From a plasmid, in sequence record NZ_CP143948.1: 64,000 nucleotides of DNA; one strand, 5' to 3'. Both the position numbers and the translations under genes were made by a program. The notes beneath the pieces were generated by a model. That model did not search any database. It saw nothing but the letters and a program-made list of their open reading frames with translations, and was not told the DNA's origin. This document shows positions 2,723 to 51,372 of the stretch, one piece after another. How positions within the stretch are numbered: the stretch's first letter is position 1; every line of letters starts with the position of its first letter.

Positions 2723-3841
2723 TTAAATTACATATCTTACATTTTTTTCTTTTACTATCATGACTCCATCCTCACCACAATAGCAGGTGTTTGGATTGAT
2801 GGTTCCACGGCTCTCTACGATGCAATTTTCGAGGTGCACATTGTCGCCTATGTAGACGTCATTGAGTATCACGCAGTTCTTCACTGTGGTGTTTTTGCCC
2901 ACAAATACCTGCTTGAAAAGCACCGAATCCTCCACACTGCCGTTTATGATACAGCCACTTGATACGAGGCTGTTTGAAATGTCTGAGCCCGGATTAAACT
3001 TGGCCGGTGGCAGGTCGTCCACCTTTGAGCAGATGGTCGGCTCCTCCCTGAAGAAATAGCTTCTGACGTCAGGTCTTAAGAAATCCATATTGGTCTTGAA
3101 GTATGCATCAATATCGGCGATATTGTTCCAGTATGAATTTATCTTGTAGCCATATATTTTCTTTACATTTTTGTAGCGCACGAGGATATCATTTACGAAA
3201 TCGAATCTGTTTTCCTCAGCTGCCGCCTCCAAAAGCTCTATGAGCTGTCGTCTCCTGATGACATAGATACCTGTGGAAATGGTATTGGATGAGGCCTCGA
3301 TTGGCTTTTCATCAAACTCTGTGATTCTTGACTCATCATCCATGCGTACCACACCAAAACGGCTGACATCGTCGTTGTACATCATGTCCTTGCATACCAC
3401 TGTAATGTCTGATTTTTTCTCGATGTGAAAATCAAGCACTCTGTTGAAATCCAGCTTGTATACACAGTCACCGCTGCTGATGATGACATATGGCTCATGG
3501 CGTCTCTTGAGAAAATCAATGTTCTGATACATCGCATCTGCCGTGCCCCTGTACCAGTCACTGTTGTCCGCTGTGACTGTAGGTGTAAAGAGGAATAAGC
3601 CCCCCTGCTTTCTGCCAAAATTCCACCATTTTGATGAGCTTAAATGCTCATTCAGTGAGCGTGCATTGTACTGGGTCAGTACTGCGACAGTCTGTATATG
3701 TGAGTTTGACATGCTGCTGAGCGCAAAATCTATGCTTCTGAAGCTGCCTGCTACCGGCAGGGCCGGTACTGCTCGTTTTGCTGTCAGTTCCTTCATCCTA
3801 TTATTGTTGCCGCCGGCCAAAATTATTCCTATTGCCTTCAT
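2723..3841 (-). CDS. glgD: Glucose-1-phosphate adenylyltransferase subunit GlgD
   Basis: 372 aa; degenerate nucleotidyltransferase N-terminus ([16 protein letters not shown]) plus left-handed beta-helix C-terminus; 4-nt overlap with glgC upstream on the same strand. Confidence 0.8.
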
Positions 3842-5639: not shown

Positions 5640-7019
5640 ATGTATAAAATAGATTTCAGCAAACCAATACACATCCATTTCATAGGCATCGGCGGTATCA
5701 GCATGAGCGGTCTCGCAGAGATTCTGCATGAGGAGGGCTTTACAATTTCCGGCTCCGATTCAAAGGAATCAGACCTCACAAAAACTCTTGCTGCCAAGGG
5801 CATAAAAGTCATATATGGCCAGAGCGCAGACAATATCACATCCGGTATCGACCTGGTAGTTTACACTGCTGCTATCCACGAAAGCAATCCTGAGTTTGCC
5901 GCAGCAAAAGCAGCCGGTATTCCAATGCTTACCAGAGCCGAGCTTCTCGGACAGATTATGGACAATTACGATTATTCTATCGCTGTAGCCGGCACACACG
6001 GCAAGACTACCACCACATCCATGATCAGCGAGATTCTTCTCGCCGCCCAGACAGATCCTACCATTTCCGTAGGTGGTATTTTGTCATCTATCCACGGCAA
6101 TCTGCGTGTGGGCGATTCAGAGTACTTCATCTCTGAGGCGTGTGAGTACACAAACAGCTTTTTGAATTTCAGACCACGCTACAGCATTATTTTAAATATT
6201 GAGGCTGAGCATCTGGATTTCTTCAAGGATATCAACGACATCAGACATTCCTTCCGCGAGTATGCATCAAACACTCTCGCAGGCGGTGCTACCATCATCA
6301 ATGGTGAGATTGACAGCTATGAGGAGATTGTCGCAGGACTTCCTCAGAAGATTATCACCTATGGCTTTGATTCAAAATATGATTTCTATCCGGAAAATAT
6401 AACCTATGACGATAAAGCTTGTGCATCTTTTACAGCTATGAGACAGGGTAGTCCACTTTTCGACGTAAAACTCTCTGTTCCGGGCGCTCACAATGTAAGC
6501 AATGCGCTCGCTGCCATAGCTTTATCCACCACACTCGGTCTTGATGAAGAGTCTATCCTCACAGGCCTTGACAAATTTGGAGGTGCTGACAGACGTTTCC
6601 AGTACAAGGGCAAGGTAAACGGCGTCACAATCATTGATGACTACGCTCACCATCCAACCGAGATCCGCGCAACACTGACAGCTGCACAAAAATATCCACA
6701 TGACAGGCTTGTCCTTTGCTTCCAGCCACACACCTATTCCAGAACCAAGGCATTCTTAAATGATTTTGCCGATGTTCTTTCAATGGCAGATGTTGTGGTG
6801 CTTGCTGATATCTATGCTGCGCGTGAGCAGAACACATATGGTATCTCATCTAAGGATATCCTGGATTTATTGCTCGAAAAAGGTGTGAATGCGCACTATT
6901 TCCCATCATTTGAGGAAATCGAGAAATTTTTATCAGAAAATTGTGTAAACGGTGACCTGTTGATAACAATGGGTGCCGGAAATGTAGTAGAAATCGGCGA
7001 AGACCTGCTTAAGAAATAA
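5640..7019 (+). CDS. murC: UDP-N-acetylmuramate--L-alanine ligase
   Basis: 459 aa; HFIGIGGISMSGLAEIL N-terminus and GTHGKTTTTSMI P-loop, a typical MurC Mur-ligase architecture. Confidence 0.9.
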   Translation: MYKIDFSKPIHIHFIGIGGISMSGLAEILHEEGFTISGSDSKESDLTKTLAAKGIKVIYGQSADNITSGIDLVVYTAAIHESNPEFAAAKAAGIPMLTRAELLGQIMDNYDYSIAVAGTHGKTTTTSMISEILLAAQTDPTISVGGILSSIHGNLRVGDSEYFISEACEYTNSFLNFRPRYSIILNIEAEHLDFFKDINDIRHSFREYASNTLAGGATIINGEIDSYEEIVAGLPQKIITYGFDSKYDFYPENITYDDKACASFTAMRQGSPLFDVKLSVPGAHNVSNALAAIALSTTLGLDEESILTGLDKFGGADRRFQYKGKVNGVTIIDDYAHHPTEIRATLTAAQKYPHDRLVLCFQPHTYSRTKAFLNDFADVLSMADVVVLADIYAAREQNTYGISSKDILDLLLEKGVNAHYFPSFEEIEKFLSENCVNGDLLITMGAGNVVEIGEDLLKK

Positions 7020-37412: not shown

Positions 37413-40400
37413 CTATCCCTCCATCAATTTCAGATAATCGCCCTTGTCTATATGCATCATAGAAATCTGATTATTATGCCGCCTGAAGCCATAGACACAG
37501 TCCACATTTCGGATAAGCGACTGCAGACGTTCATCCGGTACACAGACAATCAGCTGCAAGTCCATCTTCCTTGCATACTTGAGACACACCGCACTTCGCT
37601 CCTGATCCATCTTGGAAAATGCCTCATCCAGAAGCACCAGCTTAATCTTTGAATCACGATTGCTCTGCTGCATATAAAGCATCGCAAAGCCCGCAAGAAG
37701 CGCAACGTACTTAGGGTTCTGTCCCTCGCCGCCCGAATCACGTCCTGCCATGTCATCTACAAAGTTTTCCCTGATGACACGGCCGTTTTCGTCCGTAACC
37801 TGCTCATACATGCTGAATGACAGATAATTGCGGTAATCCGCATACTGCTCCATTTCCTTGCGCTTCTGCATTCGCAGATGCTCATCCTCGTCCCTTGGCG
37901 GCATGAACTTGTCTGTCAAAAGTTTAATTTTCTGCTCATATTTCTTATAAAAATCATCCTCACCAAAGCTTATCTGTCCAGCTATTCCGCCATTATCCGG
38001 ATTTTTACTGTCCAGTTCTTCCGCCATAAGCATATCATAGAACTGACCGTTTTCGTTCTTTGCCGGCTCTATCTTAATCTGATAGGTACTGTCTGAGAAA
38101 TTAGTCTCCCTAAGAAGCCTGTTTATCTCATAGGCATGGCGCTTTGCAGCCTTGATATCACCATGAATTGTACCGATGACATTCTCTCTGAGACTTTTGT
38201 AAATCACCTTGCACTGCTCCTCAAACTCACTCTCATATTCCGGCTCATAATCCTTCTCGTACTTCTCCAGCAGCTCCTCATATGCCTTATTTGACTTCTC
38301 GGCTCCGCTGAACTGACCTGACGGAAACTCCTTTATATACCTGTAGCGGGCAGTCTGCAACGTCTCCACACACGACTGCTGCCTGCCACCATTTCCGTCT
38401 GCGCCTTGCAGCTCAATAAGCTTCTCACGCTGTTTGCTCTTGACCGATGCTCCTGAGCTATGCTGCAGCATATCCTGAACCTGCTTCTCAAGCTCCTCTC
38501 TGGCAACATAGCCCTGTAACATATCTTCCAGCTGTGCTCTTCGCTGTTCGTTTGCACCTATGATTTTCTCATGCTGGCTTATCTTTTCATTTATCTGCTG
38601 CTGATTCAGTGAAAAAGCGCTCTTAAGTGCATCGATGTTTTTCTCAAGAAGCCTCTTTTTCTCCTTTAGCTCCTTGTACTGCCCATTCTCCATTGTCCTA
38701 ATAATCTCTTCGAGCTCATTTTTCTGCGAATTAACTGCTTTAAGCTCATCTGACGCCTCAGAAAGGCCCACAAAATACTCCGGCTCCCCCTTTAAGCACT
38801 CAAAATCTCTCTGTGCCTTGAGACTTGAAATAATACCCATAAGCTGTATCTGGTCCTTCTCAAGCCTCTCCACATCTGCCTCATACTCAGCAAGTCTTGC
38901 CTTGGATACCCTGCCTCCGATGCAGGCATTTGTAGTATAATCGCGCTTCTTCAGATGTCTGAAAATAAAGTTGCTGTATGAGTAGCAGTCCGGTGTAACT
39001 CCATCTCGTACCTGCTCAAGCTCGTCAACACTCCGGCACTTTATAATATGTCCCAGATATCTTTTCAGGCAGACATCTACATACTTTTCCTTTGTATCCA
39101 CCGCCTCATAAAGCGAACCATCCATGGCCTTTGGTTCACTGTCCATGATAGCCTTGGAATTGATGAGGTCAACATCCTCAAACTGCTTCATATCCCTGAA
39201 AATAACAGCAGCAGTATGCGCATAACGCGGCTCTGTGATAAGTGAGAACTTGAGCCTGCCCATACGTCCTTCTATGGCATTCTTCCATTCCTCGTCCTGT
39301 ACGTCAAACATATCCGCAAATACCTGTACCTTCACAGGCTCGCCAAATCTATCACTTAAGTCTCTCTGCAGCGTAGCTCTTGCCGAACGCAGGCTCTCAC
39401 TGTATGACTTGCGGTTGTTCTTCATATCATCGACCAGACGTTTTTTCTCTTTAAGCTCTTTTGTTATCTCATTTTTCTGCGAATTATTGTCCTCGAGCTC
39501 ATCCTCGATATCCTTCTTTATAGACTCAAGCTTTAGATGAAGCTCCTGACATTTTGCCTCTGTGACGTCACCATCCACAATCTCTTCAATAAGGTTTAAA
39601 ACTGCATTGCTCACATAATCTGTGATGACCTCATCCTCATCCCAGGCCTTTAGTCCGTTTGTGATTTTAATCCACTGACGGCTGTTGTCGGTAAGCATGA
39701 GACTTCTCTTCTCAAGCTCCCTAAGCTGATCCTTTTTGCTTCCTAAGTCGCTCGATTTCAAATCTGCACATACCTGGATATACTCCTGCTGCAGATTCGC
39801 CTGCTGCCCGGCTATATCATCTGCCTTTTCTGAAAGCCTGCCCTGTTCTTCTTCGATACGCTTTTTATCATCCTCAGCTGCCTGAATCCTTGCACGCATA
39901 TCCTCGATATCTATGCACCTGATCATTGTCTCTGCCATGACAATATCGCTCTGGATATTTACCAGTTCCTGCCCTGACTCCTTTATTTCCTTAAGAAGCT
40001 CAATACGCTTGCGCATATCCTCTATTTTTTCCCTGATTTGTCTGTATGCATCAAGCTGCTCACTGATAGTCTCTATCGTGCCCGAGTCACTCTTTGGAAA
40101 CATATAATCGCGTATAAACTGGCCTGTTCCATTTGTCATTCTGAGTGCAATAGCACTTTTTTCCATTGTGATAAAACGATTCGGGTCAATATATCCTAAA
40201 ATCACATCATATAATGTGCCAAGGTATGCCTCCTTCGATGCGTAAATACGGTTTACATCCCCTCTGGCGCGTCTGTCAGCTGACTGTGAGCGAGTATTTA
40301 CAAGCTTTTTAATATCATTATTTGAATAGCAAAAGCCGTCCGCTGTCATATATGAAGGCTCCGGCATCCTGCCCGAATGACTGAAGTACACAAATCTCTT

Positions 40401-40817
40401 AATCTCAGAATCGTTTTTTCGTACCTCAAATGCTATTCCTATACATGTAAACGTATGACTGCCTGTATCCTCTATCTCAAGCGCTATGACCGAACAAAAA
40501 TCACAGTCGCCACGATTTGCGGAGCCATCCTTCTGCTCACCCCTCAAATAGCTCAGAACACTTCTCCTGTTTTTTGCATCATCTGCAGCCTTGTTCAAAA
40601 ACGTGGGGCTGAAGCTGCCGTAGAGGATTACCTGAATCGCATCCATGACGGTTGATTTTCCCGAGCCACTCTTACCACTGAACAAATTGACATACTCATT
40701 AAAATGCAAAACCTTGTGATTTATTCCGCCCCAGTTGTTTAGACACATTCTGGTAAATATCTTCTTAGACTGACTCAATTGGTAACTCCTCCATTTCACT
40801 GTTCTTGGCAAATTCAT
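37413..40817 (-). CDS. SMC-like ABC-type ATPase, JetC/MksB-like (Wadjet/condensin family)
   Basis: 1134 aa; N-terminal Walker A FSGKSGSGKST, a long E/K/Q-rich coiled-coil middle, DSGGEG signature-like motif and C-terminal Walker B LVLLDEAF. The real start may be TTG at 40778 (GGAGGAG RBS), which would give a 14-nt overlap with the upstream gene. Confidence 0.65.
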   Translation of the reverse strand: MNLPRTVKWRSYQLSQSKKIFTRMCLNNWGGINHKVLHFNEYVNLFSGKSGSGKSTVMDAIQVILYGSFSPTFLNKAADDAKNRRSVLSYLRGEQKDGSANRGDCDFCSVIALEIEDTGSHTFTCIGIAFEVRKNDSEIKRFVYFSHSGRMPEPSYMTADGFCYSNNDIKKLVNTRSQSADRRARGDVNRIYASKEAYLGTLYDVILGYIDPNRFITMEKSAIALRMTNGTGQFIRDYMFPKSDSGTIETISEQLDAYRQIREKIEDMRKRIELLKEIKESGQELVNIQSDIVMAETMIRCIDIEDMRARIQAAEDDKKRIEEEQGRLSEKADDIAGQQANLQQEYIQVCADLKSSDLGSKKDQLRELEKRSLMLTDNSRQWIKITNGLKAWDEDEVITDYVSNAVLNLIEEIVDGDVTEAKCQELHLKLESIKKDIEDELEDNNSQKNEITKELKEKKRLVDDMKNNRKSYSESLRSARATLQRDLSDRFGEPVKVQVFADMFDVQDEEWKNAIEGRMGRLKFSLITEPRYAHTAAVIFRDMKQFEDVDLINSKAIMDSEPKAMDGSLYEAVDTKEKYVDVCLKRYLGHIIKCRSVDELEQVRDGVTPDCYSYSNFIFRHLKKRDYTTNACIGGRVSKARLAEYEADVERLEKDQIQLMGIISSLKAQRDFECLKGEPEYFVGLSEASDELKAVNSQKNELEEIIRTMENGQYKELKEKKRLLEKNIDALKSAFSLNQQQINEKISQHEKIIGANEQRRAQLEDMLQGYVAREELEKQVQDMLQHSSGASVKSKQREKLIELQGADGNGGRQQSCVETLQTARYRYIKEFPSGQFSGAEKSNKAYEELLEKYEKDYEPEYESEFEEQCKVIYKSLRENVIGTIHGDIKAAKRHAYEINRLLRETNFSDSTYQIKIEPAKNENGQFYDMLMAEELDSKNPDNGGIAGQISFGEDDFYKKYEQKIKLLTDKFMPPRDEDEHLRMQKRKEMEQYADYRNYLSFSMYEQVTDENGRVIRENFVDDMAGRDSGGEGQNPKYVALLAGFAMLYMQQSNRDSKIKLVLLDEAFSKMDQERSAVCLKYARKMDLQLIVCVPDERLQSLIRNVDCVYGFRRHNNQISMMHIDKGDYLKLMEG

Positions 40818-41490
40818 GGGTATGGTTTACAGAACTGCCTTCTGTATTCAATCCGGCAGCTTCAAGTGTTGCAGCCGACTCGTTATCATACTTAATCAGC
40901 TCCACCTCATCACTGTACATGCGCACAAGCTCATTTATATCCATGGCTGAGCAGAATATATTTACTGTGCCATAAATATAAATCGGTGTGTTGTCCTCCA
41001 GGTTTGCAATAGCCCCCGGCAGTTCAATCATCTGATGTGTTTTCATAAGCAAAAGAGCGTCTGACCATTCCTGATTAGTGAGCTTTCTGGTAATCAGATT
41101 GGTATTTCTGCCATACTCACGAATCTCCGCCAGATTCGTTGTTGTCGCATTAAGCCCCTCGCCCATGATTTTATCCCTGTATATCATCTTCATTATAATG
41201 ACAATCCTTGCAGTAAGAAGAGTCATCTTCTCGAGCATGACACCATCACCCGTTATCCTGAAAAGATGCTCCTGCTGGTCATGAACCAGCTCACAGTCAA
41301 GCACAGCCAGATAATCAGAGATAAACTCTCTGTTTCTAAGACACACCTGATACCTTGGATTGTCTCTTTGAATCAATGTAACGGGGTCACACTTCATTTG
41401 CAAAATACAGGTCTGCCTCAACAGATCCTGAATAGTTTTTCTAATATTTTCTGCCTCATTTGGCGAAACATTCTCCATATATTCAAACAT
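40765..41490 (-). CDS. JetB/MksE-like subunit (DUF4194-type, inferred from size and position)
   Basis: 241 aa acidic protein sandwiched between the kleisin-like and SMC-like genes, matching the conserved mksF-mksE-mksB / jetA-jetB-jetC order. No independent motif. Confidence 0.45.
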   Translation of the reverse strand: MFEYMENVSPNEAENIRKTIQDLLRQTCILQMKCDPVTLIQRDNPRYQVCLRNREFISDYLAVLDCELVHDQQEHLFRITGDGVMLEKMTLLTARIVIIMKMIYRDKIMGEGLNATTTNLAEIREYGRNTNLITRKLTNQEWSDALLLMKTHQMIELPGAIANLEDNTPIYIYGTVNIFCSAMDINELVRMYSDEVELIKYDNESAATLEAAGLNTEGSSVNHTHEFAKNSEMEELPIESV

Positions 41491-41505
41491 ACATTGCTCT
41501 CTTTT

Positions 41506-43041
41506 CTATGCTTCTCGTTTAGAGTCCGATTTGGATATTACAAGCCTTGAGTAGCTTACACCATCACTCTTTGTTATCTCTCCATCCAGACTCACCGTAT
41601 CCTCACCCATGCGCTCATTGGTCTCCTCCTGCCATAAAAACAGAAGCTTTTCCAGATCCTCCATGGATTCTACAGTCTGTTCATCTGTCACAAACATGCC
41701 ATCACGCATATTTTTATCTCTGAAGCTTTGAAGCTCCTTTTTGGTATACAATGGCTTTGGCACAAAATCTGCCATATCATCTTCGCCTGCCGAAGCATCG
41801 TCAATAACAAACGGAACAAACTCACTTCTTCCTCTCTCTCTTCTTCCCGGAAAGCTGTCGTCCGTTACATTGTAAAACTGTCTGGTGAACTTCATTCTGT
41901 TTCGAAGAGCCCCAAGTATCTCATCTGTTTTATCACTCTTATCTATCAGGTTAATGAGCTTTACTATATTATCCTCGTCATCTGCGCCTTCCTGCAGGAT
42001 ATAGTGTATCCTTGCAAGCGCCCTCTTTGCAAAAATCGTCTTCTGCTCAATAAGCTTGTTGTACTTTCTCTCAATCAGGTCAAACTCATGCTCCACCTTA
42101 TAAACAAGCTCACTTGCCTTATCACAGTACTCCACGCTGTACTCATAGCGTTTTCTCTCAAACGTACCGGGTGTAGTCTGCGAAAGAATTCCCTCAAGCT
42201 CAGCCCTTCTGTCATCGTTCTGATTGAGGATTTTGCTTATAAGCTCCTTTACAGCCTCCTTATAACGATAAAAGCTATCCGTGGTTGTAAGGATGGCATA
42301 ACGTCTGCTATCACTGTTATTAATTTCCTTAATCAGTACCTTCTGTATACCGATAAAATCCTTCATACGTGACAGCTCATCAAAATATGCCCTCATGCCA
42401 TCCTGCATATTTGATAAAAGCTGACCAAGATTTTTTGACGTATACAACGCATTTTTCAGAATATCATTATTTTTTTCCGGGTCTGAAAAATATGTAAAAA
42501 GCGCACTGTAAACAGCCAAAATACTCTCACGCTCCCTGCTGTCATCATCCACAAGCAGCTTTTTAAATAGCTCAGCATACATCTGGCTGTACTGAGGAAA
42601 TGCAATCACATATGTGTTGAGCTTTTCATCAAAATCACTCCTGATCCAGCCCCAGTTTATAAGCCTGCCCAATATAGCTGATGGTGTCAGGGTGTATGCG
42701 AAGCTGGTCTGGTCATATACATCGACAATTTCCAGATCAGAATTATAATCATCATGATTATCCATGCTGTCACTATCTTTATTACTCTCATCTTCATTAT
42801 AATCAGTCTGCCATACAATGCCTGTTTTTGATATGGTATCCGCTATGATTATCTGACACTCCTCACGTGTCAGTCCCAGTGATGCATAGACCTCGTTATT
42901 CTCCTCATATAACGCAACAACTATCTGCATGTATGCATCCATATTTTTTGTGCGGAATAAGCTATAAAATTCTTTTGGTATTCTATCTTTTAATGTCATA
43001 CTCATATAATAACATATCCCCACGTTTTTCGCCATATACAT
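41506..43041 (-). CDS. JetA/MksF-like kleisin-type subunit (inferred)
   Basis: 511 aa acidic, largely helical protein directly upstream of the 241-aa and SMC-like genes. The start is uncertain (M1, M3 or M13; no strong RBS). Confidence 0.45.
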   Translation of the reverse strand: MYMAKNVGICYYMSMTLKDRIPKEFYSLFRTKNMDAYMQIVVALYEENNEVYASLGLTREECQIIIADTISKTGIVWQTDYNEDESNKDSDSMDNHDDYNSDLEIVDVYDQTSFAYTLTPSAILGRLINWGWIRSDFDEKLNTYVIAFPQYSQMYAELFKKLLVDDDSRERESILAVYSALFTYFSDPEKNNDILKNALYTSKNLGQLLSNMQDGMRAYFDELSRMKDFIGIQKVLIKEINNSDSRRYAILTTTDSFYRYKEAVKELISKILNQNDDRRAELEGILSQTTPGTFERKRYEYSVEYCDKASELVYKVEHEFDLIERKYNKLIEQKTIFAKRALARIHYILQEGADDEDNIVKLINLIDKSDKTDEILGALRNRMKFTRQFYNVTDDSFPGRRERGRSEFVPFVIDDASAGEDDMADFVPKPLYTKKELQSFRDKNMRDGMFVTDEQTVESMEDLEKLLFLWQEETNERMGEDTVSLDGEITKSDGVSYSRLVISKSDSKREA

Positions 43042-43161
43042 GGAAATAAACGTGGGGATATTAATATTGCTGCTTCACATCTCAGTCTTAACAATAACAT
43101 CCGGTTACCGTCAAATCACTCCTGATTGTGACCATCAATAATTCTATTCAATATAATATGC

Positions 43162-44505
43162 TTACTGCTCAGCAACTCTCAGATGACGTATAAGCTCATT
43201 TAAGCTCTCTGCCTCACTGCTCATCTCCTGACTTGCAGCTGCACACTCCTGTGAAGAAGCTGAGTTAGTCTGAACTACATCGTTAATCTGCTCTACGCCA
43301 TTATTAATCTGCTTGATAGCATCTGTCTGTGTCTCAAGTGTCTCTGCGATTCCATTAACCTCATCTGTAATAGTCTTGGAATTGCCTGCAACCTCCTCAA
43401 GCTGTGATGCTGTCTTGCCTGCAATAACCATTCCTTTTTCAACAGCCTTGACTGAAGACTCGATAAGAGCTGCTGACTCCTTAGCAGCATTTGCACTCTG
43501 CTCAGCAAGTACAGTAACCTGATCTGCTACAACTGCAAAGCCTTTTCCTGCCTCTCCTGCTCTGGCTGCCTCGATAGAAGCATTGAGTGCAAGAAGGTTT
43601 GTCTGTGATGCAATCTCATTGATTGTTGCGATGATTTTACCAATCTCCTGAGATGCCTCATTTATCTCATTCATGGATGTAACCATCTCATGCATCTGTC
43701 CGTTGCTATCCATAATCTCAGTTCCGAGTCCATCAACCTTCTGGCTGATTTCCTTTGCATGCTCGGCATTCTCAGCTACCTGATCCGCTACAGAAGCAAG
43801 TGTGGCTGTAAGCTCCTCCACAACGGCGGCCTGGTCTGTTGCGCCCTGCGCCAGATCACTTGAGCTGGCAGCTACCTGCCCAGCACCGTTTGAAACCTCA
43901 TTTGCCGCTCTCTGGATACCACTTACTGTATCTGACATGCTCTCCTCGAAAGCAACAATTGATTCTTTAATTCCTACAAAATCGCCTTTCCACTCCACCT
44001 GTGGCTTAAAGTTGAAATTGCCATCTGCAAACTGTCTCATAGTCTGGTCGATATCATCAATATATGTGCCAAGTGTCCTGATAGACTTTCTAAGGTCATG
44101 TGCAAGTTTGCCAACCTCATCATCTGAATGATACTCCAGATTGCTGTGAAGATTTCCATTAACAAGCTCTCCTGCCACTACCTCAATCTGCTGTAATGGC
44201 TCAAGCACAGAATCAATAACCTGGTCACTGATTTTTTTTGCAATCATTGTGGCTACAATTCCAACTATTATTACATTAGCCAGTCCTATAATCAGGAAAA
44301 ACGTAGCAACTGTTCCCGACTCGGCACCAAAGATATTAGCCTTTGCACCAAAATAAACCAATAAAACTGCAACAATTGATATGCCTCCCGATACAAGCAG
44401 CATATCCAATACTTTCTTATAGCCATATTTCAATCTCTGCTGAAGTGGCATTTCCATTATTTTGCTTTTAGCTTCCTCACCCATATGTAATTCTCCCTTT
44501 CTCAT
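43162..44505 (-). CDS. Methyl-accepting chemotaxis protein (TM sensor, HAMP, MCP signalling domain)
   Basis: Two TM helices, HAMP, and the highly conserved LLALNASIEAARAGEAGKGFAVVADQV signalling motif. The start may be an internal Met. Confidence 0.85.
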   Translation of the reverse strand: MRKGELHMGEEAKSKIMEMPLQQRLKYGYKKVLDMLLVSGGISIVAVLLVYFGAKANIFGAESGTVATFFLIIGLANVIIVGIVATMIAKKISDQVIDSVLEPLQQIEVVAGELVNGNLHSNLEYHSDDEVGKLAHDLRKSIRTLGTYIDDIDQTMRQFADGNFNFKPQVEWKGDFVGIKESIVAFEESMSDTVSGIQRAANEVSNGAGQVAASSSDLAQGATDQAAVVEELTATLASVADQVAENAEHAKEISQKVDGLGTEIMDSNGQMHEMVTSMNEINEASQEIGKIIATINEIASQTNLLALNASIEAARAGEAGKGFAVVADQVTVLAEQSANAAKESAALIESSVKAVEKGMVIAGKTASQLEEVAGNSKTITDEVNGIAETLETQTDAIKQINNGVEQINDVVQTNSASSQECAAASQEMSSEAESLNELIRHLRVAEQ

Positions 44506-44646
44506 TTAGGTTTCGTTCTATACAGTAAGATTATTATATCATTACCATAGTACTATTTCAATGATAATTTGACAATATTCGTCATTTTTGACATATCGCC
44601 TAATTTCGGAAATGATTTATAGTCAAATACACTAATTTCCCGCTTA

Positions 44647-44949
44647 TTACACCTCGAAATCCATACATGCCCTATTTGCAGTAAATGGTCTCACCTTGGT
44701 ATCCGCCACTGCAACATGCTTAGGATTCTTTGCATACGCTGCAAGTGCATCAGCATCCTCAAATGTAGTATCAAGCATCACATCTACGGTAGATGTCGGA
44801 AGATAATCTGTGCGAACTGAAATGTCGATCATTCCCGGAATCTGTCCCTTAAGTCCCTCTAAGCCTTCCTTTATGCCGGCACGTATTTCAGCCTTCTGTG
44901 CCTCTGTGTACTCATCCTTGAGTGTCCATAAAATAATGTGTTTAACCAT
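44647..44949 (-). CDS. Dabb-family stress-responsive dimeric alpha/beta-barrel protein
   Basis: 100 aa; MVKHIILWTLKDE-type Dabb signature. Confidence 0.65.
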   Translation of the reverse strand: MVKHIILWTLKDEYTEAQKAEIRAGIKEGLEGLKGQIPGMIDISVRTDYLPTSTVDVMLDTTFEDADALAAYAKNPKHVAVADTKVRPFTANRACMDFEV

Positions 44950-45205
44950 TGTGTTCCTCCTGAGTTTATCAGGTCTTTCGACCAGTCCAAACTATAACAT
45001 AATAATTTCTTTAATGTTCATCTCTTCTATAGTTCAAAACCATAAGGTGAATGGAGACCTTTGTATGAATAATATGCCATTCAGACCGCTATGTCAATTA
45101 CATATTCTACCCCATCGCTTCGTTTCCTACCCCATTTTGCACCTTTTGTGGCAGAAAACATATTAGGTACAGTTTAGAATACATTTATTATTCAAATCAT
45201 TTAAT

Positions 45206-45730
45206 TTACATTTCTCTTTTAGCTTCTACCTTTGTTGCATATTTCCACGTCTTTCCGCAATCTTTTGAATAGATACTTTCCCAACTAAATGTATCCTTCT
45301 CAATATTTTTGAAATTCCATTGCCATATAGTTGTATCATTCGCATCTTTATTAATCCCTGTTTGTATAATATCATTCTCCAATTCTTCGGCGATTAACCT
45401 ATCAACACTCCATTTGGAAACGTACACTATATTCCACTTTTTTGAATTATCTATCATTGGAACTCGTATTGTTGTTCCATAATCTCCGTATAAAGTATCT
45501 TCCTCTGTCCATTCTCCTCTTTTGGGACAAATGAAGACATCTTGAATTCCATACCCATCCATGACATATGAAAAAAGCCACTCACCTTCTTTTGTATCTT
45601 CAATCTTCCCCTCTTCATCATATGTAGTCATTGTAAACGACCAATTTCCAACAAATCTACTATACAATGATAAATCTGTGTTATTATTCGCATTATTGCT
45701 TCCTAATGCTTCTAAAAATTCATTTTTCAT
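45206..45730 (-). CDS. Hypothetical protein (AT-rich, Trp-rich, 174 aa)
   Basis: ORF with AT-rich codon usage; no motif recognised. Confidence 0.4.
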   Translation of the reverse strand: MKNEFLEALGSNNANNNTDLSLYSRFVGNWSFTMTTYDEEGKIEDTKEGEWLFSYVMDGYGIQDVFICPKRGEWTEEDTLYGDYGTTIRVPMIDNSKKWNIVYVSKWSVDRLIAEELENDIIQTGINKDANDTTIWQWNFKNIEKDTFSWESIYSKDCGKTWKYATKVEAKREM

Positions 45731-45763
45731 TAGCGTACACTCTCCTCCCGATAAACATGTTGC

Positions 45764-46285
45764 TTATTTATCATTTGTAGTAATTGAATAAACAACCAAA
45801 TCCCTATATTCCCCTGTGTTTTTATCAATTCTTCTTTTTCTTAAAACCCCATCCTTAATAAAACCTACCTTTTCAAGCAGATTAAGCGAAGGTTTATTAT
45901 CTATATTACATTTTGCCTCAATGAGATACAGTCTATCTTTTGACAAGTATTCTGAAATCATCTTTTTTACAGCTTCAGTGCCATAACCTTTACCATGCCA
46001 CTTTTCACCAATAACATAACCAATTTCACCAATCCTTAATTCTTGATATGGTATATCAAAAGATATATATCCTATACATGCACCACTTTCTTTTTCAACA
46101 ATTACCCATGCATTCGTATTTTTCACCATAGCATTTACAAAAGAATTCATCTGATCCATATTCATTGGATATCCCATTATAAAATCACCCAAATGCTCAT
46201 CTGTCCCCCATCCCTCGAAGCATATTGAAGCATCTTCATTCACAAAATGGCGGATGTATAATCGCTCTGTTTCTATTTTCATCAT
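45764..46285 (-). CDS. GNAT family N-acetyltransferase (RimJ/RimL-like)
   Basis: ERLYIRHF...WHGKGYGTEA acetyl-CoA binding motif. Confidence 0.8.
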   Translation of the reverse strand: MMKIETERLYIRHFVNEDASICFEGWGTDEHLGDFIMGYPMNMDQMNSFVNAMVKNTNAWVIVEKESGACIGYISFDIPYQELRIGEIGYVIGEKWHGKGYGTEAVKKMISEYLSKDRLYLIEAKCNIDNKPSLNLLEKVGFIKDGVLRKRRIDKNTGEYRDLVVYSITTNDK

Positions 46286-46429
46286 AAAAATCCTTTTCCA
46301 TCTACATTATGACTTGGCACCACTACATCAATTAATCCTACTATAACATACTTTTAAACTGTAAAAAAGGGTTTCCGAGAAATCTCGGAAACCCTTGAAT
46401 TTACTAGATATTTACACTACTAACAAGTA

Positions 46430-46484
46430 ATTACTCGATAACTGTAGCAACACGTCCAGAACCTACTGTACGTCCACCCTCACG
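46430..46484 (-). repeat. 55-bp copy of the tuf 3' end (last 17 codons plus stop), direct repeat of 50184-50238 with one synonymous mismatch
   Basis: ATTACTCGATAACTGTAGCAACACGTCCAGA(A/T)CCTACTGTACGTCCACCCTCACG is present at both sites. The relic copy forms a 22-codon mini-ORF (46431-46499) with its own GAGGT RBS. Confidence 0.85.
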
Positions 46485-46704
46485 ATACTTTAATATCATT
46501 TTACCTCATATTTTTTATGGTTTTCTCTCCAAAATACAGTGAAAAACGACTGATTTGTACTATTTATTTTTATTTGCCTGATTTCTTGGCACCGTTTTGG
46601 CACCGGAAGCCTCAGTCAAAAAGCTTCTCTTCTGCTGTTTATACTCTTCTCTATCAGCTTTAATTTATAGCCAAAAAGCAGCCAGTTTTTCATATAAATA
46701 ATTT

Positions 46705-47985
46705 CTAATAACTTTTATCGCCTTTCTTCAAAGGAGAAAACGTAATCTTATTTGCCAAAAGAAAAAGAATTATTATTACAATACCAAATCCCACAAAAAG
46801 TGAACTTGTATCAACAACAGTAACTTTGTATATAATACTAATCACAAAAGATACCACTGGCGCGCATGCGTATGTAAGTGAAAATCGAATTGCAGAAACA
46901 CGTCCTATATATTCTTTAGTAACTTCTTTTACAAATTTCACTTGTACATAAGTAATCATTAATCCCAATGCTGCACCAATTATTATCGAACCGATTAGCA
47001 ACAGTAATTTTTGAGTTATAGGATTTGCAATATATTTTGAAACAAATGCAATAAAAACATAGTATACACCTAAAACAATTCCACAAAATGTAACAAGTGT
47101 ATTATTTTTTTTCTCCTCTTTCATTTTTGCAAAAGTCAATGATCCCAAAATAGTACCAATAGTTACGCTTACACTTAGTAATGAAACAATTTTGGCATCT
47201 CCACTAAACATTTCTCTTGCAATCGGGGCGAGCAGTGCATCAAATGGAACCACTGCTGAATTAATTAGAATACATAAAAAACATAGTTTTAATAGCTTCT
47301 TATGGTCAAATACATAACTAAATCCATCTCTAAGCGAAATTAAATATTCTCTGCCAATTATTCGGTTTGTCTTCTTTTCTTCTTGAACAGAAAATTCTAT
47401 TTTTACTATAAGCAACGCTGATATTAAAAATATCAAAGCATCTATCGCTAAAGAAATACCTATTCCAAATGAACTAATCACTATGCCTGACAAGCCAGTT
47501 CCAACTAATACTGCTATTTTGGTACAAGACACATTGACACTTACACCTTTATCATAATGTTCATTAGGAAGTACATGCTGAATAACTGCTACCCCTGCTG
47601 GCATATGAAATGCTTCTATTAATGAAATGGATATTGTCATAAAAACCAATATTAATGGTGAAAGCATGTTTTGTGTATATACATATAATATATACAAAAC
47701 TAACAGAACTCGAGCTATATCTGAAAGTACTAACACTTTCTTTTTATTCATATTCTCGACTAATGGACCTATAAATGGTTGAATAATTACAGAAGTAGCT
47801 TGATTAATACCAAAAATAATCGCAGACCACCCTGCACTATTTGTAAGTAAATATACCAACCATGTAAAAAGTATTGTATCTAATGAATCACCACAGCGGT
47901 TAATAATATTAGAAGTCAGCAGATAAACATAATTGTGGTTATGATATAACTCATGTTTATTCATATTTGTTACCTCTCTAATCAT
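46705..47985 (-). CDS. MFS transporter (putative exporter of the adjacent RiPP-like product)
   Basis: 426 aa, about 12 TM; 4-nt ATGA overlap with the upstream radical-SAM gene. Confidence 0.7.
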   Translation of the reverse strand: MIREVTNMNKHELYHNHNYVYLLTSNIINRCGDSLDTILFTWLVYLLTNSAGWSAIIFGINQATSVIIQPFIGPLVENMNKKKVLVLSDIARVLLVLYILYVYTQNMLSPLILVFMTISISLIEAFHMPAGVAVIQHVLPNEHYDKGVSVNVSCTKIAVLVGTGLSGIVISSFGIGISLAIDALIFLISALLIVKIEFSVQEEKKTNRIIGREYLISLRDGFSYVFDHKKLLKLCFLCILINSAVVPFDALLAPIAREMFSGDAKIVSLLSVSVTIGTILGSLTFAKMKEEKKNNTLVTFCGIVLGVYYVFIAFVSKYIANPITQKLLLLIGSIIIGAALGLMITYVQVKFVKEVTKEYIGRVSAIRFSLTYACAPVVSFVISIIYKVTVVDTSSLFVGFGIVIIILFLLANKITFSPLKKGDKSY

Positions 47986-49136
47986 AATTTAGATTGTTTA
48001 ATTTCGCAAGCTATCTTATAAAGATCCTGATGTTTTAAAGCCGCTGCTTTTTCTATAACATTATCAATTTCTGATATATCATTAAGTGATTCCAAATATT
48101 TTTTCCATTTTTTCATTTCAACATTATATGCACAGTATCTATTTTCACTTTCAAATGAGCCGTTAATGCAATAACGACTATTACTACATCCTCCTAAGCA
48201 TCGTTCTGTATAACGACATTCTCTGCAAAATCCTTTTAACTTACTACTATCAAAATTTCTATTCCACTTAAAAGAGTCCGGACTTTCCCAAATCGACTTT
48301 AAAGATTTTTCACGAATATTTCCCGCTACTAATGTTTTATCTCTAATAGAAGTACAAGCAACAATATCTCCATTATGCAGAATACCAATTACATGCTTTC
48401 CTGCTCCACAACCTGTCCAAGACCAATTATCATTAAGAAAATTCTCATTTACTTTTATATCTTTATTGCTATAATAACCTATGCAATCTGCCAAAACAAT
48501 TAACAACTTACCTCCAATTTTATTATATGCAAAATCAATAATAGAAAGAATATCTTGAGGTTCTATAAGCCATTCTGGGCGTTTTGCAAAATTCCCCATT
48601 GGTAATGCAATCTGTAACTGCCAACTATTAACTCCCAAATCACTTAATAATTGATATAGTTCTTCCAATTCACATATATTTTCTTTATTTATTGAAGTTA
48701 TTACTGATGTCGAAATATTATTTTTTCTTAATTCTTTCAATGCTTTAATACTTTTATTGAATGATCCCGATCTCCGTATAAAATCGTGAGTTTTTTCAAG
48801 ACCATCAATACTTAAACAGACACTTCTAATTCCTGATGTTATCGCATTATGAATAAAGTTTTCATCAATCAACCAACCATTTGTAATAATACTTGTTATT
48901 ATGCCATTATCTACTAATCTTTTCGCAATAATATGCCAGTCACTACGTGTCGTAGGTTCCCCTCCAGATAATGTAATAACTTTTAATCCCAAATCTTTTA
49001 ATTGGTCACACACCTCAAGAGCTTCTGATGTATTCAACTCATCGGGTAGCGCTTCTGCACAACTTGAACCGCAATGTTTACAACGCATATTACAACCCAT
49101 TGTTATTTCCCATACAGCTGTAGTTAATTTATTCAT
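47982..49136 (-). CDS. Radical SAM / SPASM-domain peptide maturase
   Basis: CNMRCKHCG (C.3C.2C) radical-SAM cluster at residues 15-22 with no N-terminal RRE, and a C-terminal Cys-rich SPASM region (CRECRYTERCLGGCSNSRYC...CAYN). Confidence 0.85.
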   Translation of the reverse strand: MNKLTTAVWEITMGCNMRCKHCGSSCAEALPDELNTSEALEVCDQLKDLGLKVITLSGGEPTTRSDWHIIAKRLVDNGIITSIITNGWLIDENFIHNAITSGIRSVCLSIDGLEKTHDFIRRSGSFNKSIKALKELRKNNISTSVITSINKENICELEELYQLLSDLGVNSWQLQIALPMGNFAKRPEWLIEPQDILSIIDFAYNKIGGKLLIVLADCIGYYSNKDIKVNENFLNDNWSWTGCGAGKHVIGILHNGDIVACTSIRDKTLVAGNIREKSLKSIWESPDSFKWNRNFDSSKLKGFCRECRYTERCLGGCSNSRYCINGSFESENRYCAYNVEMKKWKKYLESLNDISEIDNVIEKAAALKHQDLYKIACEIKQSKL

Positions 49137-49217
49137 ATATTCTCTCCTATAATCCTTTTTAAATAAAAAAGACCTACTCTATATTTCTTTTTACATAGAG
49201 CAAGTCTTTTCTACAAA

Positions 49218-49325
49218 CTACATTCTCACACCTGTTCCGTACATAACTGGTCCAAATAAGTTCTTAGAGGTTTTTAATTCAGAAATCTTTACAAACTCCA
49301 AGCTCAATTCTTCAAGATTAAACAT
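49218..49325 (-). CDS. RiPP precursor peptide candidate (35 aa: MFNLEELSLEFVKISELKTSKNLFGPVMYGTGVRM)
   Basis: ATG at 49325 is preceded by GGGAGGTG; amphipathic leader-like N-terminus. It lies 81 nt upstream of the rSAM gene on the same strand. The track ORF (68 aa) reads through from an unlikely upstream start. Confidence 0.5.
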   Translation of the reverse strand: MFNLEELSLEFVKISELKTSKNLFGPVMYGTGVRM

Positions 49326-49482
49326 TTTTATCCACCTCCCGTTTATTGAATTTATCTTAAGAATACATCTCTTATTTTCAAATGTCAAGTTATTTTCATT
49401 ATTTTTCCCAAATTTCGAGTTCAAATTCTCGTTTTATTTGTAACATATTTTCCATTTTCTACGCATACATCAGATCTCTTAA

Positions 49483-49926
49483 CCACTTATAAATGTCCGT
49501 AAAATTGCAAAAGCAACTGGAATCAGTGCTACAACCTTATATTCAATCATTCAAAAAGATTCCAATATTCGATTTGATTTTGCTTTAAGACTTGCAAACG
49601 AATTGCAAATTGATGTGAATGAGATATGTTCTGCCAGTCCATTTTCTGACACAATTAAGGAAGAAGAGATTTATCCTACACTTCCAGACGGTTTGAACGG
49701 AGCCTTAGACGCAAGTCGTGTAAAGACTTACTTAAAAAATTCTATGTATCCGTTGATGTATCTTTTTGGCAAAAATAGTATGCCTGATGTAGATAATCTA
49801 CTTACATCATTCTATCAGCTTGATGATGAAGCCAGACAGGAAGTTGTAGAAACAATCCGTCTGAAACTGCAATATCATCGAGATCCGAAACGTGCTGAAC
49901 AGATCAAGCAGATTAAAGGTTGGTAA
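49483..49926 (+). pseudogene. XRE-family HTH regulator, apparently 5'-truncated (no in-frame start upstream of helix 2)
   Basis: In-frame translation from 49483 gives NVRKIAKATGISATTLYSIIQKDSNIRFDFALRLANELQIDVNEI (HTH helices 2-5). A TAA sits at 49480 and all three frames are closed just upstream; the first possible start is TTG 49603, downstream of the HTH. Confidence 0.45.
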
Positions 49927-49931
49927 AAAAT

Positions 49932-49972
49932 CACTCCTGTGAATGGCAAACATTCGCAGGAGTTTCTTTTTG
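49932..49972 (+). terminator. Rho-independent terminator after the XRE gene
   Basis: ACTCCTG...CAGGAGT stem followed by TTCTTTTT. Confidence 0.5.
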
Positions 49973-50092
49973 GGCACCGTTTTGGCACCACTGGTCTTAT
50001 TTTTCAATTTTAAATTTATCTGTATTTTATCTTGCTGATAAATATTTCGCTATTTCTCTACTTATAATTTTTCAAATCATTCTCTCTTTAAG

Positions 50093-50127
50093 ATACAGAA
50101 AAACCCGTAGAACCGAAGTTCTACGGG
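50093..50127 (-). terminator. tuf terminator
   Basis: Minus-sense CCCGUAGAAC-UUCG-GUUCUACGGG hairpin followed by UUUUUCU, about 60 nt below the tuf stop. Confidence 0.7.
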
Positions 50128-50184
50128 TATCTTACGTTTAGACACAACGTTATCTTACGATAACAAATCCATATTAAGATTGTA

Positions 50185-51372
50185 TTACTCGATAACTGTA
50201 GCAACACGTCCAGATCCTACTGTACGTCCACCCTCACGGATAGCGAATGTAAGACCCTGCTCCATAGCTACTGGATGGATGAGCTCGATTGTCATCTCTA
50301 CGTTATCACCAGGCATGCACATCTCTGTTCCTGCTGGAAGCTCGCAAACACCTGTTACGTCTGTTGTTCTGAAGTAGAACTGTGGACGATAGTTGTTGAA
50401 GAATGGAGTATGACGTCCACCCTCGTCCTTTGTAAGAACGTAAACCTGAGCCGTAAACTTATGGTGACATGTTACTGTACCAGGCTTAGCAAGAACCTGT
50501 CCACGAACGATCTGGTCACGGTTAATACCACGGAGAAGTGCTCCGATGTTATCACCAGCCTGAGCCTCGTCTAACTGCTTACGGAACATCTCGATTCCAG
50601 TAACAACAGTCTTCTGAACGTCCTCTTTAACACCAAGGATCTCTAACTCGTCGTTGAGGTGAAGTGTACCACGCTCTACTCTACCAGTTGCAACAGTACC
50701 ACGACCTGTGATTGTGAATACGTCCTCTACTGGCATAAGGAATGGCTTATCTGTATCACGCTGTGGATCTGGGATATAAGAATCAACAGTATCCATAAGC
50801 TCCATGATCTTGTCTCCCCAAGGTCCCATTGGATCCTCAAGAGCCTTAAGAGCTGATCCCTGGATGATTGGGCAATCATTGAATCCGTACTCCTCAAGCT
50901 GCTCTGTAACTTCCATCTCTACGAGCTCGATAAGCTCTGGGTCGTCAACCATATCACACTTGTTAAGGAATACGATGATGTAAGGAACACCTACCTGACG
51001 AGAAAGGAGGATGTGCTCCTTTGTCTGAGCCATAACACCATCAGTAGCAGCAACAACAAGGATAGCACCATCCATCTGAGCTGCACCAGTGATCATGTTC
51101 TTTACGTAGTCAGCATGTCCAGGACAGTCAACGTGTGCGTAATGTCTCTTTTCTGTCTCATACTCAACGTGAGCTGTAGAAATTGTGATTCCACGCTCTC
51201 TCTCCTCTGGAGCCTTATCAATGTTAGCGAAATCTGTAGCTGTGTTACCAGCGACACGAGCTGCTAATACTGCTGTAATAGCTGCTGTTAAAGTTGTTTT
51301 ACCATGATCTACGTGACCGATGGTACCAATATTACAATGTGGTTTTGTTCTTTCAAATTTAGCCTTTGCCAT
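50185..51372 (-). CDS. tuf: Elongation factor Tu
   Basis: 395 aa; [18 protein letters not shown] and NKCD GTPase motifs. Confidence 0.97.

Follow-up and report, generated by a model that had tools for sequence, protein, structure and literature searches.

The locus described here lies in a 64,000-nucleotide stretch of sequence record NZ_CP143948.1 (the window), from Agathobacter rectalis, in which a 3.7-kb cassette at positions 46430–50238 adjoins the 3′ end of tuf, the gene for elongation factor EF-Tu. The cassette is bounded by two copies of the tuf 3′ end and carries genes for a presumed MFS exporter, a radical S-adenosylmethionine (SAM)/SPASM peptide maturase and the short precursor of a ribosomally synthesized and post-translationally modified peptide (RiPP), together with the remnant of an XRE/Cro-type repressor gene (coordinates in Table 1). 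This gene content, proposed in an initial annotation of the stretch, was borne out by the open reading frames (ORFs) and by domain searches. The repressor remnant lacks its start codon and helix 1 of the helix-turn-helix (HTH) domain, and its match to Pfam HTH_3 begins at profile position 13. The segment had also been described as an AT-rich block; its GC content is indeed low but does not delimit an element, as values of 0.30–0.34 run on past 46430 down to about 45000, over the genes for a GNAT acetyltransferase and a 174-aa protein.

Positions 46430–46484 and 50184–50238 form a direct repeat of 55 nt, both copies on the minus strand and identical at 54 of 55 positions. The repeat comprises the last 51 nt of tuf (its last 17 codons), the TAA stop codon and one base more; identity begins with CGTGAG and ends one base past the stop. 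The single mismatch is a synonymous Gly codon in the tuf frame, GGT in the relic copy at 46430–46484 and GGA in the functional gene. Each copy is followed by a different hairpin terminator with a T run on the minus strand: the stretch with the hairpin at 46367–46396 folds at −26.8 kcal/mol (z = −5.9), and the terminator at 50103–50128 (z = −5.5) is unlike the tuf terminators of cassette-free contigs. The earlier description of a 55-bp repeat with one synonymous change, of homology that stops at the stop codon and of a distinct terminator behind each copy was confirmed. No third copy of the repeat was found within the 64-kb window, and none of 100 shuffled sequences gave two matches. A Hamming scan allowing up to 12 mismatches, together with local alignment, revealed no further tuf relics of a longer array in positions 40000–46429, in L001 or in L008.

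The window was compared with relatives, 30 long contigs from the same or sister lineages (cited by our L numbers), by looking up its exact EF-Tu, GNAT and Dabb-domain proteins in public assemblies. Most of the contigs looked up contained the cassette with both repeats. In L004, a 7.6-kb integrative and mobilizable element (IME) lies between tuf with its core and another copy of the 55-nt repeat, beyond which comes the RiPP cassette. This IME encodes an XRE repressor of 160 aa, a Xis-like HTH protein of 64 aa, a tyrosine integrase, an AAA_25 Rep-like protein, a MobV/Mob_Pre relaxase, TnpV and cargo. The same layout (tuf–IME–core–cassette–core) was found in L013 (CP001107.1), which we take to be Agathobacter (Eubacterium) rectalis ATCC 33656; its integrase is 63% identical, and it shares the flank from GNAT to the Jet genes with the window. 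At the sister locus in L008, the integrase of 360 aa contains Arm-DNA-bind_4, Phage_int_SAM_3 and Phage_integrase domains, and the cargo includes BlaI/BlaR-like proteins and VanZ (L008 17043–21188). The intact relatives in L004, L008 and L013 all combine an integrase with a Mob_Pre/MobV relaxase and have no type IV secretion system genes. In sister strains, intact IMEs with the 55-nt repeats occur alone or in tandem with the cassette.

The slot between tuf and the cassette holds other elements in L013, L014, L020, L053 and L057. That of L014 (1–5928) encodes a VapE-like protein, Mob_Pre, MarR and MatE, and that of L020 (1–5921) a cyclic-oligonucleotide-based anti-phage signalling system (CBASS; SMODS, E2/E1, JAB and a 2TM effector), EcoRII, Vsr and a methylase. 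In L055, a GmrSD gene lies in debris of mobile genetic elements at the tuf locus (L055 3324–6863), and in the isolate L036 an integrase of 404 aa, 38–44% identical to the other two, abuts tuf. At least three lineages of tyrosine integrase, 38–63% identical and associated with different cargo, are found at the tuf site. The right ends of four unrelated elements all stop exactly at CGTGAR, which argues that the 55 nt are an attachment core common to several integrative elements. Judged from these arrangements, the tuf locus appears to grow by tandem accretion.

Two records titled 'Bacteriophage sp.' from human faecal viromes, L046 (MT839352.1) and L047 (MT839806.1), are fragments of tuf-targeting IMEs and not of phages; their integrases are 99% and 81% identical, respectively, to that of L008. 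An Agathobacter-like tuf (96% identical) or the relic repeat was also encountered in L028 and L029, contigs binned in metagenome-assembled genomes (MAGs) titled Bacteroidaceae and Senegalimassilia, probably through binning contamination.

Both ends of the cassette correspond to ends of the intact IME. On the left, positions 49992–49488 are 77% identical at the DNA level to the IME left end and XRE gene of L004 (11272–11777), and the protein remnant is 90% identical to residues 17–160 of the L004 XRE (tblastn). The XRE gene of L047 is 95.5% identical in DNA to the remnant and goes on through the 16 codons lost from it to the genes for the Xis-like protein and the integrase, so the left breakpoint was set at 49490/49491. 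On the right, positions 46605–46430 are 80% identical to L004 18643–18819 over about 175 nt. The hairpin at 46367–46396, just outside the cassette, is 82% similar to the left end of an intact IME. Where the IME has xis, int, rep and mob, the cassette has a stretch of 2.9 kb with 31% GC that holds the peptide, maturase and MFS genes. A tblastn search with the IME proteins found no homologs of Int, Xis, Rep or Mob anywhere in the 64-kb window, in agreement with the initial annotation, which had described an element without an integrase.

The annotation had also pointed to a 22-codon mini-ORF formed by the relic tuf end, with GAGGT as its ribosome-binding site. The ORF is present in the window, but conservation and function did not find support: L020 and L029 no longer have its ATG, a TAA immediately precedes the core at the right end of the intact IME, and GAGGT lies only 3 nt from the ATG. 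On these grounds the mini-ORF is regarded as a by-product of the relic and not as a conserved gene.

Short GGCACC repeats near both ends had been suggested as possible recombinase sites. A paired motif, GGCACC-GTTTT-GGCACC, is indeed identical at both ends of the IME and the cassette, but the copy near the relic repeat lies at 46588–46604 and not at 46576–46594. The pattern GGCACC-N5-GGCACC has two matches in the window against 0.03 expected, and the 17-mer GGCACCGTTTTGGCACC occurs there only twice. The cassette and the L004/L008 IME carry this 17-mer without a single difference at each of their ends, in surroundings of about 80% DNA identity. Its two copies have the same orientation; the distance to the right-hand core is 103–104 nt for the cassette and the L004 IME alike, and that to the left-hand core is 86 nt in the intact IMEs of L004 and L008 and 195 nt in the cassette. 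Because it is absent from L013-, L014- and L020-type elements, the motif appears to be specific to one integrase lineage. We infer that the paired motifs are arm-type sites for the N-terminal arm-binding domain of the integrase, with GGTGCCAAAACGGTGCC as the candidate stretch. Their being sigma-54 promoters instead is very unlikely. The sigma-54 consensus is TGGCAC-N5-TTGC; TGGCAC fits its −24 element, and the GG-N10-GC spacing equals that of the consensus. Against this, the −12 element reads TGGC and not TTGC, no ORF lies downstream in that orientation at either site, and the motif keeps the same orientation at both ends of the IMEs and the cassette, with a conserved distance to the attR core.

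These comparisons support the earlier suggestion of an integrative-element footprint at the tuf 3′ end with a replacement end, in that integrase-bearing elements lie between the same 55-nt repeats and have homologous ends. We interpret 46430–50238 as a cis-mobilizable element (CIME), a decayed IME that has kept both attachment sites and lost its own recombination and mobilization genes, and assign this reading a probability of roughly 85%. In the proposed course of events, a family of IMEs in A. rectalis and related Lachnospiraceae would use a tyrosine recombinase to integrate at the 55-nt tuf core, each element bringing its own copy of the core and its own terminator and so leaving tuf intact after integration. 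A deletion or replacement reaching from XRE codon 17 to about 120 nt before the right-hand core would have removed xis, int, rep and mob, with the precursor, the radical SAM/SPASM maturase and the MFS exporter remaining between the ends. The cassette might still be excised or co-transferred when a cognate IME integrates beside it, a process known as accretion-mobilization. The signs pointing that way are indirect: the tandem IME–CIME arrays, the conserved arm motifs, the cassette-free alleles, and a cassette in L033 that is 99.67% identical beside a flank of 96.1%. The RiPP module was presumably cargo of the IME, and one deletion would have made the cassette; since cargo in intact IMEs adjoins the right arm, a single deletion is the most economical history.

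Two tandem IMEs could instead have fused, a deletion across the internal attachment site bringing the XRE remnant and arm from the left end of one next to the RiPP cargo and arm from the right end of the other; the outer repeats would still be attachment sites. Tandem arrays are common at tuf, and internal deletions are frequent in the cassette, where both the 144-nt in-frame and the 940-nt deletion affect the maturase gene. The left end is closest to the L047-type IME, at 95.5% identity, whereas the right end can be compared only with the L004 type, to which it is 80% identical; two source elements are therefore possible, and this weighs against descent from one. However, the 17-nt paired motif, which does not differ between the two ends, points to a single cognate system, and with the cargo lying beside the right arm in intact IMEs a single deletion is enough. 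We consider the fusion unlikely. Appreciably less probable is homologous recombination, by which the RiPP segment would have arrived on donor DNA with a piece of the donor's tuf end, the repeat being a by-product. The highly conserved tuf would make a good anchor, its last 90 nt recur unchanged in a Roseburia MAG with a tuf of only 87% overall identity, and the low-diversity tract reaches past the repeat into the GNAT segment. Such an exchange would nevertheless not make a truncated second copy with boundaries as sharp as those at integrase-bearing elements, and both cassette ends, with their arm motifs and the XRE remnant, are IME ends. The chance that tuf was duplicated in tandem and the second copy decayed to 55 nt is negligible: it has in its favour the second tuf 3′ end itself, and it is opposed by the DNA upstream of the relic, which is homologous to the right end of the IME, and by the shared repeat boundary of four unrelated element right ends. 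The two observations named at the outset as able to overturn the integrative-element proposal were not made, as neither the window nor any relative shows a tuf-like body upstream of the relic, and no relative has the right end of the cassette without the repeat.

Several further points count against the cassette being a CIME. The flank past the relic also looks like the left end of an IME, and the exact pre-insertion site is uncertain. Neither a circular junction nor an excision product was found. IMG/VR viral contigs do not contain the core, and the virome scaffold L046 (MT839352) starts within the core and so does not represent an attP junction. Look-ups of orthologs of the maturase (83% and 60–63% identical) revealed no intact IME with the RiPP module, the three-gene modules lying at unrelated chromosomal sites or on short contigs and never with IME genes. 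The integrase is presumed to bind the GGCACC motif. Seven metagenome contigs with an apparently empty site may be assembly collapses, and three of the seven have a mosaic tuf. In these contigs the tuf body is joined to a relic-type flank, which is of the window type in six and of the L001 type in one (L027). The initial annotation had suggested looking for an empty site in related genomes, and the six show tuf and core joined to the terminator/GNAT flank of the window, but we did not take them as proof in view of the possible collapse. The default largest k-mer of metaSPAdes, which may have been used for these assemblies, is 55, equal to the repeat length.

Cassette-free alleles nevertheless exist, as seen in two long contigs with a single core. 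In L054 (222 kb), tuf, a single core and its own terminator are followed by the SnoaL and Dabb genes without any element, and in L055 (1.09 Mb) the single core is followed by TnpV, IS66 and GmrSD without the cassette. The exact pre-insertion site is not among these two alleles.

Across strains, identity to the window is 99.4–99.97% in the cassette, 99.1–99.7% from rpoC to tuf and 97.2–98.4% from the Dabb gene to the Jet genes; for the cassette together with the GNAT/174-aa segment (45168–50183) it is 99.4–100%. In L033, which represents another GTDB species, identity is 99.67% for the cassette and 96.1% for the flank, and it falls at the repeat. The cassette had no match in PLSDB. Among the long contigs examined, it is close to fixation, varies hardly at all and is the innermost resident at tuf. 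This low diversity suggests recent spread, either by site-specific mobilization or by recombination anchored in the core, and excision of the cassette may continue at present. A bolder scenario, which we regard as possible though rather doubtful, would have the cassette circulate as a hitch-hiker that is excised or co-transferred by tuf-targeting IMEs and has recently swept through A. rectalis and neighbouring lineages because of an advantageous cargo, a cysteine-free FGPVMYG...R RiPP of a possibly new crosslink class, with the traffic of elements homogenizing the last 55–90 nt of tuf across Lachnospiraceae genera.

Some tuf genes that are only 87–88% identical overall (those of L031, a Roseburia MAG, and of L030, L024 and L021) have a 3′ end identical to that of the window, the shared stretch measuring 48 nt for L030, 90 nt for L031 and 148–237 nt for L024/L021; the full-length identity for L024 is unreliable because of indels, and the search pattern was biased towards cases with a shared 3′ end. 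The shared ends could result from homogenization by element-borne ends, from recombination or from chimeric assembly.

Table 1. Features of the tuf locus (window positions unless a contig is named)
Feature	Position	Strand	Basis
tuf (EF-Tu, 395 aa), target gene	50185–51372	−	ORF; Pfam GTP_EFTU D2 and D3 domains on identical protein
attL core, 55-nt tuf 3′ end (CGTGAG...GAGTAAT)	50184–50238	−	Same 55 nt borders intact IMEs in L004
Element-borne intrinsic terminator, predicted to end tuf transcription now	50103–50128	−	Fold −31.3 kcal/mol, z = −5.5; T run
Paired motif GGCACC-GTTTT-GGCACC, candidate arm-type site	49973–49989	.	Pattern search
Predicted terminator hairpin of XRE remnant gene	49933–49963	+	Hairpin prediction
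XRE/Cro-type repressor remnant, residues 17–160 of IME repressor	49491–49926	+	tblastn; Pfam HTH_3
Left breakpoint of deletion or replacement removing XRE N-terminus, xis, int, rep and mob	49490–49491		Three-way alignment of window, L047 and L004
Sigma-70-like promoter TTGACA-17-TATTCT, upstream of precursor gene	49360–49388	−	Consensus match only
RiPP precursor, 35 aa, MFNLEELSLEFVKISELKTSKNLFGPVMYGTGVRM	49218–49325	−	ORF list; orthologous 30–35-aa peptides in four other loci
Other precursors sharing the core	L038 7808–7915; L043 4678–4785; L045 282–374; L044 about 6680–6780		
Radical SAM/SPASM peptide maturase, 384 aa, full length here	47982–49136	−	Pfam Radical_SAM and SPASM
MFS transporter (MFS_1/MFS_3), presumed exporter	46705–47985	−	Pfam/NCBIfam profile search
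Paired motif GGCACC-GTTTT-GGCACC, candidate arm-type site, 103 nt from attR core	46588–46604	.	Pattern search
Element right end, P-arm-like, including attR core	46430–46605	−	80% identical to IME right end
attR core, relic tuf 3′ end, 54/55 identical	46430–46484	−	Repeat comparison
Terminator hairpin just outside element	46367–46396	−	Arms 46367–46380/46383–46396, 100% complementary; T run
Variable AT-rich segment outside cassette: GNAT acetyltransferase, 174-aa protein, single GGCACC at 46316	45168–46429	−	Comparison with relatives
Second variable slot: GNAT and 174-aa protein	Window 45168–46429		
Second variable slot: 238-aa protein through SnoaL	L001 14944–17847		
Second variable slot: terminator only	L033 (tuf-sense) 3384–3760		
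Second variable slot: SnoaL only	L054 6150–7781		
Second variable slot: TnpV/IS66/GmrSD	L055 2571–7782		

The precursor, maturase and MFS genes form a compact unit, always in that order, in five orthologous modules; the others occupy unrelated chromosomal sites in other Lachnospiraceae, with maturases 60–63% identical. In all five precursors the core FGPVMYG is invariant and followed by a conserved Arg (FGPVMYGxxxR), and the leaders are variable. The module thus has what defines radical SAM RiPP gene clusters, a short precursor with a conserved core that is co-conserved with a radical SAM/SPASM enzyme. Membership in the sactipeptide/ranthipeptide class was ruled out, as none of the five precursors contains Cys. 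All NCBIfam maturase models scored far below their cut-offs, the best being those for nif11-class and GDL-motif maturases; even the closest of the solved structures is distant (SkfB, matched over just the SAM domain at E = 1e-15), and the literature searched gave no match for the FGPVMYG core or this RiPP. The family may be an undescribed class of RiPPs. Like SkfB-type, PqqE and streptide-type systems, it has a short precursor directly upstream of a radical SAM/SPASM enzyme, with the CX3CX2C motif and SPASM domain, and an exporter; it differs from them in its cysteine-free precursor, its below-cut-off maturase scores and the remoteness of the solved structures.

The maturase gene occurs in several alleles. 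The full-length form of 384 aa, as in the window, belongs to a protein cluster with 2132 members. A form of 336 aa (464 members) has an in-frame deletion of 48 codons (144 nt) and was found in the type strain ATCC 33656 (L013) as well as in L004, L016, L033 and L050; no exact repeat of matching spacing, as would indicate microhomology, was found at this deletion. A form of 70 aa results from a 940-nt deletion in L009, L018, L032 and L053. Truncated proteins account for a considerable part of the clusters, with 464, 260 and 60 members against 2132 for the full-length protein. In L015, only the right half of the cassette is kept.

Beyond the relic repeat, the segment 45168–46429 is replaced by other DNA in L001, L005, L033, L054 and L055, and it may be debris of an older element. 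No repeat was found at its other edge, near 45167. By these comparisons, the array has been remodelled repeatedly. The interval from the relic repeat to the Dabb gene constitutes a second variable slot with at least five alternative contents (Table 1), and in L049 it holds additional Imm70 and SMI1_KNR4 immunity-like genes. A group II intron with an RVT_1 and GIIM ORF and Rfam matches to D1–D4 and domain V/VI was found in L003 (15017–16921) and also in L012; its insertion point corresponds to about 46357 in the window, some 10 nt downstream of the relic terminator hairpin. Insertion next to terminators is the behaviour of bacterial class C introns.

About 3 kb beyond the cassette, after the Dabb-domain gene and the gene for a 447-aa protein, lies a Wadjet-type defence locus encoding JetA, JetB and a JetC-like SMC ATPase of 1121 aa (window 41506–43041 and lower; L011 13281–18873). 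The 447-aa protein was read as a methyl-accepting chemotaxis protein, with no Pfam match on record. Between strains, the Wadjet locus is far more diverged than the ribosomal operon.

CIMEs are decayed integrative and conjugative elements (ICEs) or IMEs that retain attL and attR without recombination or mobilization genes; they often stand in 'CIME–IME–target gene' tandems where housekeeping genes have their 3′ ends, with accretion-mobilization as their way of moving, and streptococcal examples include CIMEs beside ICESt1/ICESt3-type ICEs and beside IMEs at the 3′ ends of fda, rpsI, rpmG, rplL and the tRNA-Lys gene (PMC5704250, PMC7563491). The cassette in the window has the direct attL/attR repeats of its IME family, which also lie between array elements in L013, L014, L020 and L053. 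It contains no integrase, excisionase, relaxase or conjugation genes by ORFs, domains or tblastn, and its origin from an IME by deletion is reflected in ends with 77–80% DNA identity, an XRE remnant with 90% protein identity and the undeleted state in L047. Like the CIMEs of Firmicutes, it has attachment repeats that take in a housekeeping gene's 3′ end, carries cargo, occurs in tandems and falls within the 1.2–13 kb of 'classical CIMEs'; unlike them, it is found at tuf in a gut Lachnospiraceae host, carries a radical SAM RiPP module and is near fixation. No paper describing tuf as a target of integrative elements was found in the literature.

IMEs with a tyrosine integrase and a MobV relaxase have been catalogued in streptococci and Faecalibacterium, and, like the elements of L004, L008 and L013, they insert at a conserved gene's 3′ end, which they restore (PMC5357655, PMC12084326). 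The cassette has neither integrase nor relaxase; with the truncated XRE as all that is left of the IME genes, it is a derivative of this group and not a member. The TnpV/Mob_Pre module is also known from clostridial elements of the Tn4451 type. Tn4451 uses a large serine recombinase, whereas the intact relatives share its TnpV/Mob_Pre but carry a tyrosine integrase.

A. rectalis is among the human gut's most abundant bacteria, and the EF-Tu protein of the window is indexed in about 12,000 assembly blocks. The tuf 3′ end is an integration hot spot in this species that has apparently not been described before; it offers a precise attachment site, along with candidate arm sites, from which genetic tools could be built for a gut anaerobe that is hard to engineer, explains strain variation beside a core operon often used as a phylogenetic marker, and draws attention to an uncharacterised RiPP family. 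Set against the known systems, the cassette adds an example to the CIME/accretion model and leaves that model unchanged, being a clear but ordinary case of a known kind of element.

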